The translations under genes were made by a program, and so were the position numbers. This document shows, one piece after another, positions 2,931 through 10,194 of a stretch of DNA of 24,989 bases. Numbering within the stretch: position 1 is the stretch's first letter; each line of letters starts with the position of its first letter. The notes below the pieces were generated by a model. The model saw only the letters and a program-made list of their open reading frames with translations, searched no databases and was not told where the DNA came from. Source of the DNA: a virus (taxonomy: Duplodnaviria > Heunggongvirae > Uroviricota > Caudoviricetes); IMG/VR virus record IMGVR_UViG_2619619133_000007; one strand, written 5' to 3'.

Positions 2931-2963
2931 CAGATAAAAGAAATCCTCGTCAGTGCGAGGATG
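2931..2963 (-). terminator. Putative intrinsic terminator (minus strand) at boundary of accessory cassette
   Basis: 7-bp stem ATCCTCG/CGAGGAT (2944-2963) with T-rich run on minus strand (revcomp of 2931-2943). Confidence 0.4.
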
Positions 2964-3134
2964 CTGTTCATTGCTGCTATACACTTTTTTGCTCTCAACG
3001 TAAGCGGTAGCCCATTCTGTTGGGTTGGTGCAGTTGCTTTTAGGAAATGCTATTTACCCCTTAAATGTCGGCTGAAAGAGCTAAAATCCATGCAAAAAAT
3101 TTACGCAATTTTGTGTATTATTGTGCAGTAAGTA

Positions 3135-3737
3135 ATGAGCTATTTTCTGCGCAAAAAATGGATGGTAAATTTGTCCGGGTCAGGAAAAATTTTATGGGCG
3201 CTAAACATGAAAAAAGATTCGTATCCTTATTTGATTTGCATGACAGTTTCAGGGCTGATCTTTATTTTCCTTTTCTTCTGGTGGCGGGCAGATATCTACA
3301 GGGTCACGTTTCTTAATCAGAGTATATCCCACTATTACATTCTGTTTAGCATGGGAATAGCTTTTCTGTTATCTCTGTTTTGGGTTAAGAAGGGGATAGT
3401 AAAACAAAGAGGCTGGAAGAGTCTGTCAGCATACCTTAAGGTTTATGCAGGGATGTGCATATTTGCTGGATTTTTTCTGATTATACCCCTTACGACACTA
3501 ACTTATTTTTTGCCTGGAGAGACATCGTCTTATGTTGCACCGTATCGGTATACTTCCGGTAGTTCAAAAAGTTGTTCTGGAGCTGAGGTGGATGACCCCG
3601 ATCTACATGAGAATATTCGCATTTGCTATCCGTATGGCAATTATGAGTACGATAATATTATCTATGTTGAAAAGAAAATTAATATATTAGGTGCGGTAGT
3701 GACATATGCACAGACCGCGCGTGATGATACTGAATGA
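3135..3737 (+). CDS. Hypothetical membrane protein (about 3 predicted TM helices plus ~80-aa C-terminal soluble region); accessory (moron-like) gene; start codon uncertain (in-frame ATGs at 3135, 3162, 3207)
   Basis: 200-aa ORF on strand opposite to the flanking early-left genes, in a markedly AT-rich segment; hydrophobic stretches LICMTVSGLIFIFLFFWW, ILFSMGIAFLLSLFWV, VYAGMCIFAGFFLIIPLTTL; followed by hairpin terminator; no family recognised. Confidence 0.55.
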   Translation: MSYFLRKKWMVNLSGSGKILWALNMKKDSYPYLICMTVSGLIFIFLFFWWRADIYRVTFLNQSISHYYILFSMGIAFLLSLFWVKKGIVKQRGWKSLSAYLKVYAGMCIFAGFFLIIPLTTLTYFLPGETSSYVAPYRYTSGSSKSCSGAEVDDPDLHENIRICYPYGNYEYDNIIYVEKKINILGAVVTYAQTARDDTE

Positions 3738-3771
3738 TATAGTATATAGCGGGCAAGTTTTAGTTAATTTA

Positions 3772-3809
3772 TCGAGGTAATATAATTTACCTCGACTCGT
3801 TTGTTCTGG
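3772..3809 (+). terminator. Putative intrinsic terminator for the accessory gene
   Basis: Perfect 9-bp stem TCGAGGTAA/TTACCTCGA (3772-3795) followed by CTCGTTTGTTCT. Confidence 0.5.
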
Positions 3810-3947
3810 TATTAATATTTCGCTTTACGACCGATTTTTATCTGATGATATCATGCGGTTTTCATATACTGACTTACTGTCTTTTCTCCGTTAGCGATTT
3901 TCTCCTGCTCAGCGATGATTTTATCTTTGGCTTCTAGTTAATTTCGC

Positions 3948-4169
3948 TCACTTCGAACCTCTCTGTTTACTGATAAGCTCCAGATCCTCCTGGCAACTTG
4001 CACAAGTCCGACAACCCTGAACGACCAGGCGTCTTCGTTCATCTATCGGATCGCCACACTCACAACAATGAGTGGCAGATATAGCCTGGTGGTTCAGGCG
4101 GCGCATTTTTATTGCTGTGTTGCGCTGTAATTCTTCAATTTCTGATGCTGAATCAATGATGTCTGCCAT
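3948..4169 (-). CDS. TraR/DksA-family C4 zinc-finger protein (lambda Orf73-like)
   Basis: 73-aa ORF with CxxC...CxxC motif (CCECGDPIDERRRLVVQGCRTCASC), characteristic of TraR/DksA family. Confidence 0.75.
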   Translation of the reverse strand: MADIIDSASEIEELQRNTAIKMRRLNHQAISATHCCECGDPIDERRRLVVQGCRTCASCQEDLELISKQRGSK

Positions 4170-4267
4170 CTTTCATTAATCCCTGAATTGTTGGTTAATA
4201 CGCTTGAGGGTGAATGCGAATAATAAAAAAGGAGCCTGTAGCTCCATGATGATTTTGTTTTTCATGC

Positions 4268-4453
4268 TCACCGTTCCTTAAAGACGCCGTTTAACATGCC
4301 GATCGCCAGGCTTAAATGAGTCGGTGTGAATCCCATCAGCGTTACCGTTTCGCGGTGCTTCTTCAGTACGCTACGGCAAATGTCATCGACGTTTTTATCC
4401 GGAAACTGCTGTCTGGCTTTTTTGATTTCAGAATTAGCCTGACGGGCAATACT
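4268..4453 (-). CDS. Small early-left protein, lambda orf61-like (start at internal Met MTHQQENAL...)
   Basis: ORF track 4268..4549; conserved lambda-like sequence and 186-nt length from internal ATG. Confidence 0.6.
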   Translation of the reverse strand, partial: SIARQANSEIKKARQQFPDKNVDDICRSVLKKHRETVTLMGFTPTHLSLAIGMLNGVFKER

Positions 4454-4559
4454 GCGAAGGGCGTTTTCTTGCTGATGTGTCATTGAACAAGTCCCATGTC
4501 GGCAAGCATAAGCACACAGAATATGAAGCCCGCTGCCAGAAAAATGCATTCAGTGGTTG

Positions 4560-4751
4560 TCATACCTGGTCTCTCTCATCTGCTTCTGCTTTCGCCACCA
4601 TCATTTCCAGCTTTTGTGAAAGGGATGCGGCTAACGTATGAAATTCTTCGTCTGTTTCTACTGGTATTGGCACAAACCTGACTCCAATTTGAGCGAGGCT
4701 ATGTGCCATCTCAATGCTCGTTCTTAACTCAACAGGAGATGCTTTGTGCAT
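4560..4751 (-). CDS. Small early-left protein, lambda orf63-like
   Basis: 63-aa ORF; position and length match lambda PL-operon ORF between orf61 and orf60a. Confidence 0.6.
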   Translation of the reverse strand: MHKASPVELRTSIEMAHSLAQIGVRFVPIPVETDEEFHTLAASLSQKLEMMVAKAEADERDQV

Positions 4752-4906
4752 ACAGCTCCCCGTTTATTATTTATCTCCTCAGCCAGCCGCTGTGCTTTCA
4801 GGGGATTTCGGGTAACAGAAAGGCCGGGAAATACCCAGCCTCGCTTTGTAACGGAGTAGACGAAAGTGATCGCGCCTACCCGGATATTATCGTGAGGATG
4901 CTTCAT
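4724..4906 (-). CDS. Small early-left protein, lambda orf60a-like
   Basis: ORF 4724..4912; second Met gives the 60-aa lambda-length product overlapping exo stop by 4 nt. Confidence 0.6.
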
Positions 4907-5583
4907 CGCCATTGCTCCCCAAATACAAAACCAATTTCAGCCAGTGCCTCGTCCATTTTTTCGATGAACTCCGGCACCATCTCGTCAAAACTCGCCATGT
5001 ACTTTTCATCCCGCTCAACCACGACATAATGCAGGCCTTCACGCTTCATACGCGGGTCATAGTTGGCAAAGTACCAGGCATCTTTTCGCGTCACCCACAT
5101 GCTGTACTGCACCTGGGCCATGTAAGCCGACTTTATGGCCTCGAAACCACCGAGCCGGAACTTCATGAAATCCCGGGAGGTAAACGGGCATTTCAGCTCA
5201 AGGCCATTGCCGTCACTGCATAAACCATCGGGAGAGCAGGCGGTGCGCATACTTTCGTCGCGATAGATGATCGGGGATTCAATAACATTTACGCCGGAAG
5301 TGAACTCAAACAGGGTTCTGGCGTCGTTCTCGTACTGTTTTCCCCAGGCCAGCGCTTTAGCGTTAACTTCCGGAGCCACACCGGTGCAAACCTCAGCCAG
5401 CAGGGTGTGGAAGTAGGACATTTTCATGTCAGGCCACTTCTTTCCTGATCGGGGCTTTGCTATCACGTTGTGAACTTCTGAAGCGGTGATGACGCCGAGC
5501 CGTAATTTGTGCCATGCATCATCCCCCTGTTCGACAGCTCTCACGTCGATCCCGGTACGCTGCAGGATAATGTCCGGTGTCAT
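4903..5583 (-). CDS. exo: Lambda exonuclease (Red-alpha)
   Basis: 226-aa ORF near-identical to remembered lambda Exo. Confidence 0.95.
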
Positions 5584-6365
5584 GCTGCCACCTTCTGCTC
5601 AGTGGCTTTCTGTTTCAGGAATCCAAGAGCTTTCACTGCTTCGGCCTGTGTCAGTTCTGACGATGCGCGAATGTCGCGGCGAAATATCTGGGAACAGAGC
5701 GGCAATAAGTCGTCATCCCATGTTTTATCCAGGGCGATCAGCAGAGTGTTAATCTCCTGCATGGTTTCATCGTTAACCGGAGTGATGTCGCGTTCTGGCT
5801 GACGTTCTGCAGTGTATGCAGTATTTTCGACAATGCGCTCGGCTTCATCCTTGTCATAGATACCAGCAAATCCGAAGGCCAGACGGGCACACTGAATCAT
5901 GGCTTTATGCCGTAACATCCGTTTGGGATGCGACTGCCACGGCCCCGTGATTTCTCTGCCTTCGCGAGTTTTGAATGGTTCGCGGCGGCATTCATCCATC
6001 CATTCGGTAACGCAGATCGGATGATTACGGTCCTTGCGGTAAATCCGGCATGTACAGGATTCATTGTTCTGCTCAAAGTCCATGCCATCAAACTGCTGGT
6101 TTTCATTGATGATGCGGGACCAGCCATCAACGCCCACCACCGGAACGATGCCGTTCTGCTTATCAGGGAAGGCGTAAATTTCTTTCGTCCACGGATTAAG
6201 GCCGTACTGGTTGGCGACGATCAACAATGCGATGAACTGCGCATCGCTGGCATCACCTTTAAATGCCGTCTGGCGAAGAGTGGTGATCAGTTCCTGTGGG
6301 TCGACAGAATCCATGCCGACACGTTCAGCCAGCTTCCCTGCCAGCGTTGCGAGTGCTGTACTCAT
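5580..6365 (-). CDS. bet: Bet single-strand annealing protein (Red-beta)
   Basis: 261-aa ORF matching lambda Bet ([59 protein letters not shown]...). Confidence 0.95.
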
Positions 6366-6370
6366 CCGTT

Positions 6371-6667
6371 TTATACCTCTGAATCAATATCAACCTGGTG
6401 GTGAGCAATGGTTTCAACCATGTACTGGATGTGTTCTGCCATGCGCTCCTGAAACTCAACATCGTCATCAAACGCACGGGTAATGGCTTTTTTGCTGGCC
6501 CCGTGGCGTTGCAAATGATCGATGCATAGCGATTCAAACAGGTGCTGGGGCAGGCCTTTTTCCATGTCGTCTGCCAGTTCTGCCTCTTTCTCTTCACGGG
6601 CGATCTGCTGGTAGTGACGCGCCCAGCTCTGAGCCTCAAGACGATCCTGAATGTAATAAGCGTTCAT
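6371..6667 (-). CDS. gam: Gam, RecBCD inhibitor (98-aa short form only)
   Basis: Matches lambda GamS; good RBS (AGGAGG); upstream in-frame region has no start codon before a stop, so no long GamL form. Confidence 0.9.
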
Positions 6668-6742
6668 GGCTGACCTCCTGAAAATGGCTGTGAAAATATC
6701 GCCCGCGAAATGCCAGGCTGATTAGGAAAACAGGAAAGGGGA

Positions 6743-7033
6743 TTAGTGATTCAGGCCGTTACCGCGTCCGTCGAGAAAAACTTCCACGAGCAAATCACGG
6801 GTATAAGTGCGCTCGATGCCGCGATGCAGATAAAGCCGTCCGCGTAAATTAGCTGATGCAGTCCAGGTACCATCTTTGTGTTTGACCAGCATTCCTGGCA
6901 TGACCGCACCTCGATTAACGGTCTGCGTTCCATAATGTTGATGAACCATAAAAACTCCTGCCCGTAAGCTGGGCTGCTGAACATATAGAGACTTCTGCGC
7001 GTATTCAGGCGGTGGATGGCCGCCGGTTGTCAT
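6743..7033 (-). CDS. Hypothetical protein at the kil position; possibly Kil/KilR-like host cell-division inhibitor; start uncertain (internal Met at about 6949 possible)
   Basis: 96-aa ORF first downstream of the leftward early promoter; motif [20 protein letters not shown] resembles my recollection of prophage KilR-type proteins; an overlapping alternative frame (6751..6984) cannot be excluded. Confidence 0.4.
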
Positions 7034-7226
7034 AACTAAGCCGCCTCGTTGAAGCGACTAAGGTATGAAATGTTGAGTTAATTTCAGCTGGTCACACCGA
7101 CGTTCACGCGTCCGTTTCACCCCTCGCACTCCCCGAAGCCTGCTGAAATTCAAACTGCGGATCTAAGCGGTCATCGCAACGGTGAATCAGGTAGTTGCCG
7201 TATCGTTGTGTTGTTGCGATGAACTT

Positions 7227-7256
7227 ATTTAAAACTATAGTTGTTTTATCGTCAAC
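7227..7256 (-). promoter_or_regulatory. Putative leftward early promoter (PL-like) with overlapping operator repeats
   Basis: On minus strand -35 TTGACG (plus 7251-7256) and -10 TTAAAT (plus 7227-7232); overlapping AAAACAACTATAG and AACAAC/GTTGTT repeats shared with the rightward promoter region. Confidence 0.5.
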
Positions 7257-7392
7257 AACAAAAGTTGTTTTATTGGTTGTTTTAGATATAACTGGTTGTA
7301 TTTAGGATGGATTTATTTTGTGACTTGAATCGCATAGCGATAACTGAAGCGAGGTTATGGTGGTTTTTTTAACGGTGTGTGTGATGAGGGGA

Positions 7393-7423
7393 GGGCAAAA
7401 GAAAACCCGGCACGGTGACCGGG
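7393..7423 (-). terminator. Putative intrinsic terminator downstream of the repressor gene
   Basis: Stem CCCGG-CACGGTGA-CCGGG with TTTTCTTTT on the minus strand. Confidence 0.5.
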
Positions 7424-7544
7424 ATTCTTACGCCGTTAGGTAAAGATATTATTGCGGTGGCTTAATATTACTACCTAGAGCAAAGATAGGAATTAGTTCT
7501 TTACTGAATGAGCACAATGCCCAGTTGATAATTTTTAATTGGTA

Positions 7545-8234
7545 CTACCCATGCTTCCTATATGTCTGCGGCATGCTCCCAATAACCTTACCGAAGATGA
7601 ACACCCGGTTCATCTCGTCTTTCTCGATCGGGTCCCACGGTGAGTAGCTTTTGTTATCAGAGATGACCAGCAGCTTATCCTTCATCATTTGCAGGCGCTT
7701 TACATGGGCTGTGTCGTCGTACAGAAACGCATAGATACCATCACCGTCGAAAGATTTAACTGTGATATCAACGAACAGTAGATCACCTGGTTCGATCGTT
7801 CCTGACATGCTGTCACCACGCACGTTAATGATGCGGATATTTTCCGCCTTCCTACCATCGAACATGTGACGAGCATCGTCAAACGAGTACTCAACCGAGC
7901 GTAGAACTTCTACAAACTCACGGTTGATGACTCCCGGCCCAGCACTGACTTCTATATCAAGAACGTCAATCTTGAAGTATTTGGAATGGCTGACAGTTGA
8001 TTGTATTGGTTGCACTGTACTGTCTGACATATTTCCAACGCCAGAAGATAACCATTCTGCGCGCACACCCAAAGCGTTCGCGATCTCCACGATTTTAGTT
8101 GTTTGATTAGCTTTCCCTGTTTCGATTTTCTGAATAGCAGCCTGGCTAACCCCGACCAAATCCCCAAGCGCCTTTTGTGTAAGGCCTCGCGCTAATCTGG
8201 CTTCTTTAAGTCTTTCTGAGAGTGTTGTTTTCAT
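7545..8234 (-). CDS. CI-type prophage repressor (N-terminal XRE-type HTH, C-terminal S24 LexA-like peptidase domain); not lambda immunity
   Basis: Start taken at internal Met MKTTLSERLKEARLARGLTQKALGDLVG; Ala-Gly cleavage site and GDSM serine motif typical of RecA-stimulated autocleaving repressors; divergent from the adjacent cro-like gene. Confidence 0.8.
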   Translation of the reverse strand: MKTTLSERLKEARLARGLTQKALGDLVGVSQAAIQKIETGKANQTTKIVEIANALGVRAEWLSSGVGNMSDSTVQPIQSTVSHSKYFKIDVLDIEVSAGPGVINREFVEVLRSVEYSFDDARHMFDGRKAENIRIINVRGDSMSGTIEPGDLLFVDITVKSFDGDGIYAFLYDDTAHVKRLQMMKDKLLVISDNKSYSPWDPIEKDEMNRVFIFGKVIGSMPQTYRKHG

Positions 8235-8275
8235 AGTCCAAATGTACAACCAAGGTTTTATTCCATCAAACGAAA

Positions 8276-8311
8276 ATGGTTGTTGACTAAAAACAACCAT
8301 AGTTTTAATCT
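8276..8311 (+). promoter_or_regulatory. Putative rightward early promoter (PR-like) and operator: inverted repeat ATGGTTGTT-N7-AACAACCAT overlapping -35 TTGACT
   Basis: Perfect 9-bp inverted repeat at 8276-8300; -35 TTGACT at 8283-8288, candidate -10 TAATCT at 8306-8311; cro-like gene starts 8339 with GGAGG RBS. Confidence 0.55.
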
Positions 8312-8338
8312 TGATTCAAATTAACCACGGAGGTTGTT

Positions 8339-8569
8339 ATGAACCCAGCTATCAAAACAGCGATCAATATCGTTGGTTCACAAAAGAAACTGGGCGCTGC
8401 TTGCGAAGTTTCACAGCAGGCCGTCTATAAGTGGCTTCACAACAAAGCAAAGGTATCCCCTGAACATGTCGGCAGCATTGTTACGGCTACTGGTGGAGTA
8501 GTGAAGGCATACCAGATTCGCCCGGATCTTCCGAAGTTGTTTCCACACACCGAAAAGAACGCAGCTTAA
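8339..8569 (+). CDS. Cro-like small HTH regulator (YdaS-like)
   Basis: 76-aa ORF divergent from repressor, strong RBS; HTH-like segment LGAACEVSQQAVYKWL. Confidence 0.7.
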   Translation: MNPAIKTAINIVGSQKKLGAACEVSQQAVYKWLHNKAKVSPEHVGSIVTATGGVVKAYQIRPDLPKLFPHTEKNAA

Positions 8570-8638
8570 ATTTCCATTTCACGCTCTTTAACAATAAGCA
8601 ATCAACTTAACAGTCAATTCAAACTAAAGGAGTCAATT

Positions 8639-9178
8639 ATGCAACCACTTACATACCAACAGACTAGCGGATTTAGCCCGACTGCGGTGATAAATCGTTC
8701 TCAAACAAAACAGGTGCCAGGCCACGAAAAAATCCGTGATGCCGTCCGCGCCTGGTCGGCTGTAGATAATCAGGATGTCGTTGCCACACTCATTGTGAAT
8801 GAGTATCGGGAGCAGGGCGGCGGCACCATCGATTTCCCTGATGATGTCAGCCGTGCACGCCAGAAGCTGTTCCGCTTCCTCGATAACAAATTCGATTCTG
8901 AAAAATACCGAAATAACGTGCGTGAACTGACCCCGGCAATTCTGGCGGTACTACCGCTGGAATATCGCGGTTACCTGGTTGAGCAGGATAGCTTCATGGC
9001 TAGGTTGGCTGAAATGGAAAAGGAACTCAGTGAGGCAAAACAGGCTGTCATTCTCAACGCACCACGCCACCAGAAACTGAAGGAAATTAGTGAAGGTATT
9101 GTGTCGATGTTTCGTGTGGACCCAGATCTGGCTGGTCCATTGATGGCGATGGTTACTACCATGCTGGGGGCGATATGA
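8639..9178 (+). CDS. YdaT-family protein (proposed CII functional analogue in Rac-type immunity regions), putative
   Basis: 179-aa ORF directly after cro-like gene with strong RBS (AAGGAG); segments EYREQGGG and TPAILAVLP resemble what I recall of E. coli YdaT; family assignment from memory only. Confidence 0.45.
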   Translation: MQPLTYQQTSGFSPTAVINRSQTKQVPGHEKIRDAVRAWSAVDNQDVVATLIVNEYREQGGGTIDFPDDVSRARQKLFRFLDNKFDSEKYRNNVRELTPAILAVLPLEYRGYLVEQDSFMARLAEMEKELSEAKQAVILNAPRHQKLKEISEGIVSMFRVDPDLAGPLMAMVTTMLGAI

Positions 9179-9264: not shown

Positions 9265-10194
9265 ATGGCAAACACTGCTGAGATATTCAATTTTCCAGTG
9301 CCGGATGCGGCACAAAAGGAGCCGCGCGTGGCAGATCTCGATGATGGTTATACGCGCATTGCAAATGAGTTGCTGGAAGCTGTGATGCTGACCGGATTAA
9401 CACAGCACCAGCTTCTGGTCTTTCTGGCTGTCATGCGCAAAACATATGGCTTTAATAAAAGACTGGATTGGGTGAGCAACGAGCAACTTTCCGAATTGAC
9501 CGGGATATTGCCGCACAAGTGTTCTGCTGCAAAAAGCGTTCTGGTAAAGCGTGGGATTCTTATTCAGAGCGGGCGGAATATCGGCATTAATAATGTGGTC
9601 AGTGAATGGTCAACATTACCCGAATCAGGTAAGAAAAATAAAGTTTACCTGAAAGAGGTAAATTTACCTGAATCAGGTAAGAAAAGTTTACCCAAATCAG
9701 GTAAAGGCGTTTACCCGAATCAGGTAAACACAAAAGACAAACTAACAAAAGACAATATAAAACCTTTTTCGTCCGAGAATTCTGGCGAATCCTCTGACCA
9801 GCCAGAAAACGATCTTCCTGTGGTGAAACCGGATGCTGCAATTCAGAGCGGCAGCAAGTGGGGGACAGCAGAAGACCTGACCGCCGCAGAGTGGATGTTT
9901 GACATGGTGAAGACTATCGCACCATCAGCCAGAAAACCGAATTTTGCTGGGTGGGCTAACGATATCCGCCTGATGCGTGAACGTGACGGACGTAACCACC
10001 GCGACATGTGCGTGCTGTTCCGCTGGGCATGCCAGGACAACTTCTGGTCCGGTAACGTGCTGAGCCCGGCCAAACTCCGCGATAAGTGGACCCAACTCGA
10101 AATCAACCGTAACAAGCAACAGGCAGGCGTGATAGCCAGCAAACCAAAACTCGACCTGACGAACACTGACTGGATTTACGGGGTGGAGCTATGA
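9265..10194 (+). CDS. O: Replication initiator O (lambda O-like; divergent N-terminal DNA-binding domain, lambda-identical C-terminal domain)
   Basis: Start at ATG 9265 with GGGAGG RBS; C-terminal ~110 aa match lambda O (SGSKWGTAEDLTAAEWMFDMVKTIAPSARKPNFAGWANDIRLMRERDG...); contains ori iterons. Confidence 0.9.
   Translation: MANTAEIFNFPVPDAAQKEPRVADLDDGYTRIANELLEAVMLTGLTQHQLLVFLAVMRKTYGFNKRLDWVSNEQLSELTGILPHKCSAAKSVLVKRGILIQSGRNIGINNVVSEWSTLPESGKKNKVYLKEVNLPESGKKSLPKSGKGVYPNQVNTKDKLTKDNIKPFSSENSGESSDQPENDLPVVKPDAAIQSGSKWGTAEDLTAAEWMFDMVKTIAPSARKPNFAGWANDIRLMRERDGRNHRDMCVLFRWACQDNFWSGNVLSPAKLRDKWTQLEINRNKQQAGVIASKPKLDLTNTDWIYGVEL
9616..9728. repeat. Origin iterons inside O: five ~19-bp repeats TTTACC(C/T)(G/A)A(A/T)(T/A)(C/G)AGGTAA(A/G), followed by an AT-rich stretch (9729-9770)
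   Basis: Repeats read directly at 9616-9633, 9644-9662, 9663-9681, 9688-9706, 9710-9728; each is an internal inverted repeat; arrangement is analogous to lambda ori but the sequence differs. Confidence 0.85.

Follow-up and report, generated by a model that had tools for sequence, protein, structure and literature searches.

Introduction

KilR, the 73-residue product of b1352 in the Rac prophage of Escherichia coli K-12, blocks the formation of the Z ring, and its toxicity is relieved by extra FtsZ but not by overexpression of MreBCD (PMC12482147). At high dose, KilR also mislocalises MreB and rounds the cells (PMC12482147). The protein ends in an unstructured tail of 12 residues that is essential and acts in a length-dependent manner: the delta-3C variant, left with a tail of 9 residues, is still toxic and filaments the cells without rounding them, toxicity is progressively reduced in delta-6C and delta-9C, and delta-12C is inert (PMC12482147). 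Rho/NusG-dependent termination keeps kilR silent in Rac (PMC5793797). The Kil protein of phage lambda (47 aa, PF06301), encoded immediately 5' of gam, has the same presumed role, that of an FtsZ inhibitor expressed from PL; it needs ZipA, which KilR does not (PMC12482147). Functional papers concern these two proteins, Rac KilR and lambda Kil, and our literature search found no experimental work on the 68-aa subfamily described below.

The locus analysed here lies on a 24,989-nucleotide stretch of DNA (the window) from IMG/VR virus record IMGVR_UViG_2619619133_000007 (Caudoviricetes). A first-pass annotation had pointed out a 96-aa ORF containing a 16-residue segment associated with KilR; this ORF is indeed present, at 6743..7033 on the minus strand, and the segment occupies its residues 56-71. 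Based on homology searches, cross-genus alignments and genomic context, we consider it likely, with a probability of about 0.8, that the locus encodes a 68-residue KilR-family protein as the first gene of a repressor-controlled PL operon, in a lambda-like prophage at the lambda attachment region. The KilR-family gene itself is an ordinary, already-annotated prophage gene.

Relationship of the product to KilR

The 68-aa protein matches PHROG 294, 'Kil protein for bacterial septation inhibition', with E=1.2e-38 (profile positions 4-80/83) and the NCBIfam model of KilR, NF008465 'FtsZ inhibitor protein', with E=4.4e-17 (profile positions 1-70/73), and BLASTP aligns it start-to-start with K-12 KilR at 36% identity over 61 aa (E=9e-13). 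The KilR-type identity, which the first-pass annotation had proposed from the letters, is thus borne out by homology search. The NF008465 score (61.9 bits) falls short of the curated cutoff of 92 bits, and the protein therefore belongs to a sister subfamily of Rac-type KilR, outside the narrow NCBIfam model. Every listed relative, and also the clusters bearing the name 'killing protein KilR', have precomputed PF27398 (PF27398.1) assignments; the local Pfam gave zero match for the 68-aa protein, which is uninformative as K-12 KilR itself has no relevant match in this copy, which lacks PF27398. The family is broad, with 317 clusters, and a length of 68 aa falls within the ~65-75 aa expected of its members. 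When the protein is aligned with Rac KilR and the phiES15, phi80, HK639 and Stx-phage-type homologues, 11 columns are invariant and all 11 are present here (M1, H5, G7, R13, V16, P18, G19, S32, Y40, L59 and G63). Judged from its sequence, the protein is a KilR-family member.

A predicted structure agrees with this assignment. The AF2 model, computed from a 32-sequence alignment (pLDDT 85), shows six strands within residues 7-59 and is less confident at residues 1-6 and 60-68, which would be flexible ends. The published AF3 model of KilR has a beta core and unstructured N and C ends (PMC12482147), a description that the predicted beta core and floppy ends match; the two models were compared by description. 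The model shows a small barrel of a generic kind, for which an informative structural neighbour was not found, and a PDB sequence search with the family profile returned nothing at E<=10.

Lambda Kil was also considered as a relative and rejected: hhalign gives kinship a probability of 0.3%, and the 68-aa protein has no PF06301 match even at E<=10, against 2e-20 for lambda Kil itself.

The tail that follows VFL has 9 residues, DGRGNGLNH, compared with 12 in KilR (GRDGLPVKAESW), and its sequence differs from that functional determinant. It may be asked whether a true KilR homologue could have a main role other than killing through FtsZ, for example transient growth arrest or stress tolerance of the host, or a benefit to the phage through a target such as MreB. 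In this direction point the different tail, the second target of Rac KilR (the MreB system) and its contribution to oxidative-stress survival (PMC12482147, PMC5793797), as well as the retention of an intact gene by 40% of the complete E. coli genomes, in many cases probably within defective prophages. However, conservation of the core speaks for an unchanged binding partner and, in KilR, overexpression of FtsZ, unlike that of MreBCD, is what relieves toxicity. We consider such a role improbable and retain FtsZ-directed inhibition of division as the preferred function of the protein.

Extent and reading frame of the gene

The first-pass annotation had left room for a product shorter than 96 aa, starting internally, and the conservation data and the RefSeq interval both single out this form: a coding sequence of 68 aa plus stop at 6743..6949 (minus strand), which is exactly the interval of WP_000233576.1, 'phage encoded cell division inhibitor protein', in RefSeq. 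We aligned the DNA of relatives from Citrobacter, Silvania, Enterobacter, Kluyvera and Pseudocitrobacter, together with two mis-binned MAG contigs. Across six other genera, conservation sets in at ATG 6949, all 68 codons align without gaps and the sequence 5' of this ATG cannot be aligned between genera. A Shine-Dalgarno sequence, AGGAG, can be read at 6955..6959 (minus strand), 5 nt 5' of the ATG, and the other genera retain a purine-rich equivalent (GGAG, GGGG or GGGA) just 5' of the internal ATG despite the divergence upstream. Variable columns in the Kil frame are distributed 17/11/56 over codon positions 1/2/3. By this signature, the 3' 207 nt of the 96-aa ORF are coding and under strong purifying selection across genera. 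Finally, residue M29 of the 96-aa ORF is the point at which the alignments to K-12 KilR and to the NCBIfam profile start.

Translation of the full 96-aa protein from ATG 7033, alone or beside the 68-aa form, has some evidence in its favour: the ATG lies within a 26-nt block that is exactly conserved in at least 120 phage contigs (see below), it is in frame with kil without an intervening stop, a GAGG sits 10 nt 5' of it, and extended versions of 95-128 aa are picked by many gene callers. [quoted passage not shown] The 28-codon extension (6950..7033, minus strand) is thus most likely noncoding 5' UTR.

That the real gene would be the 77-aa frame at 6751..6984 (minus strand), which overlaps kil, is open from an ATG and is annotated exactly so in PhiR34_1 (PV340559.1), is very hard to sustain, since it has 2-5 in-frame stops in 8/8 aligned loci from other genera, zero family matches in Pfam, PHROGs or NCBIfam, and a substitution pattern that suits the Kil frame instead. 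The first-pass annotation had rightly flagged this frame and called for a comparison of the two, which comes out in favour of Kil. The remaining frames are closed too, except for one reverse frame that is stop-free in a single locus. Taken together, the conservation, the stops, the starts of the profiles and the RefSeq interval lead us to read the true gene as the 68 codons of 6743..6949, with a product of 68 and not 96 aa, the 28-codon extension as leader and the 6751..6984 frame as spurious.

While start codon and frame are settled here, public phage records are wrong in several ways. The PhiR34_1 record carries the wrong frame as a 'hypothetical protein' (positions 4508-4741 of locus L002), the PhiR47_2 record extends the gene to a 128-aa 'Kil' (positions 2944-3330 of locus L014), and phage 1W labels it 'membrane carboxypeptidase' (OM475428.1 is among the inconsistent records).

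The early-left operon and the lambda kil slot

The operon opens at a cluster of candidate OL operators (7229..7305) composed of the repeats AACTATAGTTGTTTT, AACAAAAGTTGTTTT and TGGTTGTTTT, which match the OR repeats at 8246-8310, between cI and cro; a repeat search grouped them in families D1 and D2 plus the inverted pairs I1, I2, I5, I6 and I13. Further rightward lies the gene of a cI-type repressor (7545..8300, minus strand) with an HTH domain and an S24 LexA-like peptidase domain (Pfam HTH_3, E=6.5e-13; Peptidase_S24, E=1.5e-18), which RefSeq calls as a 229-aa form; a terminator-like hairpin (7423-7406, minus strand) is found 3' of it. A candidate PL promoter (7227..7255, minus strand) may be read within the operator repeats, with -35 TTGACG at 7255-7250, a 17-nt spacer and -10 TTAAAT at 7232-7227. 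Its start is predicted near 7220, which would give a leader of ~270 nt. It was not listed by a consensus promoter scan, as position 2 of its -10 hexamer is T.

From the operators, the order is leader, kil, gam (6371..6667, Pfam Gam E=2e-64), bet (5580-6365) and exo (4903-5583), all on the minus strand, bet and exo being taken from annotation. The interval from the operators to kil lacks N, cIII, ral and any other conserved ORF, and kil is thus the first early-left gene, as the first-pass annotation had it; N is likewise absent from deposited phages with an identical region, PhiR34_1 among them. The assignment to the kil position, made in the same annotation, agrees with the DNA alignment to lambda, in which gam and the spacer that separates it from kil match almost perfectly and the homology is lost at the last two codons of kil. 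The mosaic junction (6749/6750) is the same against lambda and against mEp332, which has a lambda-type kil, and the lambda-type (47 aa) and KilR-type (68 aa) genes have in common the slot, the region of the stop codon and the spacer that leads to gam. The KilR-type gene therefore represents an alternative occupant of the lambda kil slot.

On the other side of the repressor, a YdaS-type gene (Pfam YdaS_toxin, E=4e-17) is found at the cro position (8339-8569, plus strand), and at the cII position (8639-9178, plus strand) a gene that RefSeq names 'toxin YdaT domain-containing protein' and that matches the PHROG family of CII-like activators. Based on the YdaS/YdaT matches, these PR-proximal genes resemble ydaS-ydaT of Rac, although the repressor is an S24-type cI. 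Further along, TTACC(T/C)GAATCAGGTAA inverted and direct repeats lie inside the O gene (9616-9729), where the iteron array of a lambdoid ori is expected. In PhiR47_2, two genes annotated as GevT toxin and GevA antitoxin lie between cI and the terminator (positions 3631-5059 of locus L014), which is the position of rexAB in lambda; this slot is empty here (7424-7544). A literature search on GevA/GevT gave nothing relevant.

A conserved structured element in the kil leader

The 5' extension of the 96-aa ORF overlaps a structured RNA element in the leader (7008..7067, minus strand) made of two hairpins, with conserved flanks that reach to about 6989. In hairpin 1 (7067-7031), the ATG at 7033 is paired within the basal stem, CAUA/UAUG; hairpin 2 (7024-7008) is GGCGG-CCAUCCA-CCGCC, and a conserved GCGCAGAAGTCT motif lies 3' of the GGCGG/CCGCC hairpin. 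The 26-nt block that contains the ATG, TTATGACAACCGGCGGCCATCCACCG, is exactly conserved in at least 120 IMG/VR contigs and also occurs in phi80 and HK639; the scan used this exact 26-mer, which fixes codons 1-9 of the mini-ORF. The inner stem of hairpin 1 covaries freely (GTCGC/GCGGC, GCAAC/GTTGC, AGTCA/TGGCT, GGCAGA/TCTGCC and others). Over 46 distinct sequences, RNAalifold and pair counts found pairing in 99% of cells compared with 34-53% in slid controls, the covariation score is 0.384 (at most 0.067 in slid controls) and six of the nine pairs of helix 2 show double-sided changes. G-U pairs assign the functional strand to the PL transcript. The fold of the whole leader is no more stable than that of shuffled sequence (z=-0.31), and support is limited to the local hairpins and comes from covariation. 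An Rfam scan of 6300-8700 at E<=1 returned nothing.

The mini-ORF that starts at ATG 7033 is conserved only as MTTGGHPPP, its later sequence, frame and length being variable, and beyond codon 9 conservation is therefore at the nucleotide level. We note that MTTGGHPP(P) (7033-7007, minus strand), with its polyproline stall motif, might function as a leader peptide, and that the mini-ORF happens to be in frame with kil here, thereby creating the 96-aa ORF.

The element is associated with KilR-type genes: among the matches listed, 98 of the 114 motif loci with at least 2 kb downstream have a KilR-family ORF 0-950 nt further on the same strand. In other phages an intrinsic terminator usually precedes it. 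In the phi80 record M11919 the element stands at the start of the mapped 't-L1' region, and in HK639 hairpin 2 with its T-run is annotated as a terminator. It is tempting to speculate, though we hold it only as a tentative proposal, that this ~60-nt leader RNA is an undescribed cis-regulatory element gating KilR-type toxins in lambdoid phages. By analogy with Rac kilR, one possible mechanism would be a translation- or structure-dependent control of Rho-dependent termination ahead of kil. If regulatory, the leader RNA would explain how toxic genes are kept quiet in prophages without N, and it is the only part of the locus that might repay further work.

Upstream of the element (7070-7225, minus strand), the predicted PL transcript folds over its first ~150 nt into two long hairpins, at 7222-7171, with a CA-rich stretch (AACAACACAAC) in its loop, and at 7150-7080, with 12-nt arms. 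As the N gene is absent, a put-like antiterminator RNA was looked for; BLAST found no similarity to the putL-like region of HK639, and the PL and PR transcripts share no repeat pair of putL/putR type, leaving such an RNA unsupported.

State and distribution of the prophage

The prophage is truly defective, as the first-pass annotation had supposed. Its alignment to mEp332 proceeds in blocks that skip two regions, revealing two large deletions, one that begins in the O/P region and stops halfway into the endolysin gene and another that starts at tail gene Z and extends as far as the end of J and the tail fibre. As a result, P, nin, Q, the holin and most tail genes, i.e. functions in replication, late-gene activation, lysis and the tail, are missing, while the S24 repressor, the operators and the kil-gam-bet-exo operon are intact.

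The kil gene is found in 2196 of 5426 complete E. coli genomes (~40%), with at least 95% identity over the 207 nt in 2188 of the 2196, and these copies are almost always named 'phage encoded cell division inhibitor protein'. Relatives detected by tblastn occur in 146 deposited phage genomes, under the labels Kil, KilR, host killing protein or FtsZ inhibitor. The gene is nucleotide-identical in PhiR34_1, on which a literature search gave nothing relevant, and among the matches listed the protein is identical in five deposited phages (PhiR47_2, 4A7 and others). Near-identical kil copies were also seen on short contigs (L004 and L010) binned into 'Bacillota bacterium' and 'Atopobium sp.' MAGs, which are almost certainly mis-binned enterobacterial phage DNA.

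Discussion

The arrangement of the locus suggests how the gene might act. In a lysogen, binding of the S24-type repressor at the 7229-7305 operators would hold PL off. Once the repressor is cleaved in the SOS response, or lost, PL would fire, the ~270-nt leader would be transcribed and Kil would be translated from the internal ATG 6949. Read-through to kil after derepression is an assumption in this scheme, which has no N gene and in which the leader element corresponds to the start of the phi80 tL1 region. Kil would fold into a small beta-barrel of SH3/KOW-like type that ends in a flexible C-terminal tail of 9 residues and, like Rac KilR, would block formation of the FtsZ ring, leading to filamentation and loss of viability; we infer this toxicity from KilR, a 36%-identical relative. 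Because Q, the holin and P are missing, derepression would arrest division without phage production or lysis. More speculatively, the 9-residue tail may restrict the protein to the inhibition of division and spare MreB-dependent elongation, since the KilR delta-3C variant, whose tail has the same length, kills and filaments without rounding. The tail thus yields a specific prediction: filamentation without cell rounding.

Among systems that share the theme, the small proteins DicB of the Qin prophage, SulA and Gp0.4 of phage T7 likewise halt division that depends on FtsZ. None of them is a KilR homologue, and their partners and mechanisms are different, DicB acting via MinC/ZipA and SulA by direct capping (see also PMC13423816).

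Much closer are the annotated Kil proteins of HK225, mEp237, SEN34, phiES15, phi80 and HK639, which are in the same family, with 38-85% identity, and are encoded at the same early-left position; their annotations rest on homology only. This position is shared by Rac, phi80, phiES15, HK639 and P13374. HK225, phi80 and HK639 also have the leader hairpin element. The arrangements are not the same, however: phi80 has N in first place, and other ORFs separate PL from kil in both phi80 and HK639.

KilR itself has been tested experimentally, whereas the 68-aa protein is known here from sequence. The two have NF008465, PHROG 294 and precomputed PF27398 in common and share the invariant H5, G7, R13, V16, P18-G19, S32, Y40, L59 and G63. 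Both genes belong to a repressor-controlled leftward early operon, 5' of recombination genes, in a defective prophage. They differ in length (73 residues in KilR), in the two-residue insertion that KilR has after ASAN and that is absent here, in their neighbours (gam-bet-exo here, ydaE-racC-recE-recT in Rac) and in their leaders, which hold the hairpin element here and the KilS sRNA region in Rac; a counterpart of KilS was searched for in the leader, with zero similarity by BLAST and none visible by eye.

Lambda Kil, finally, occupies the same slot immediately 5' of gam, and in lambda N, ral, ea10 and cIII lie ahead of it, whereas here kil is the first gene. In E. coli, ~40% of complete genomes have this KilR-type allele at the place where lambda has an unrelated kil.
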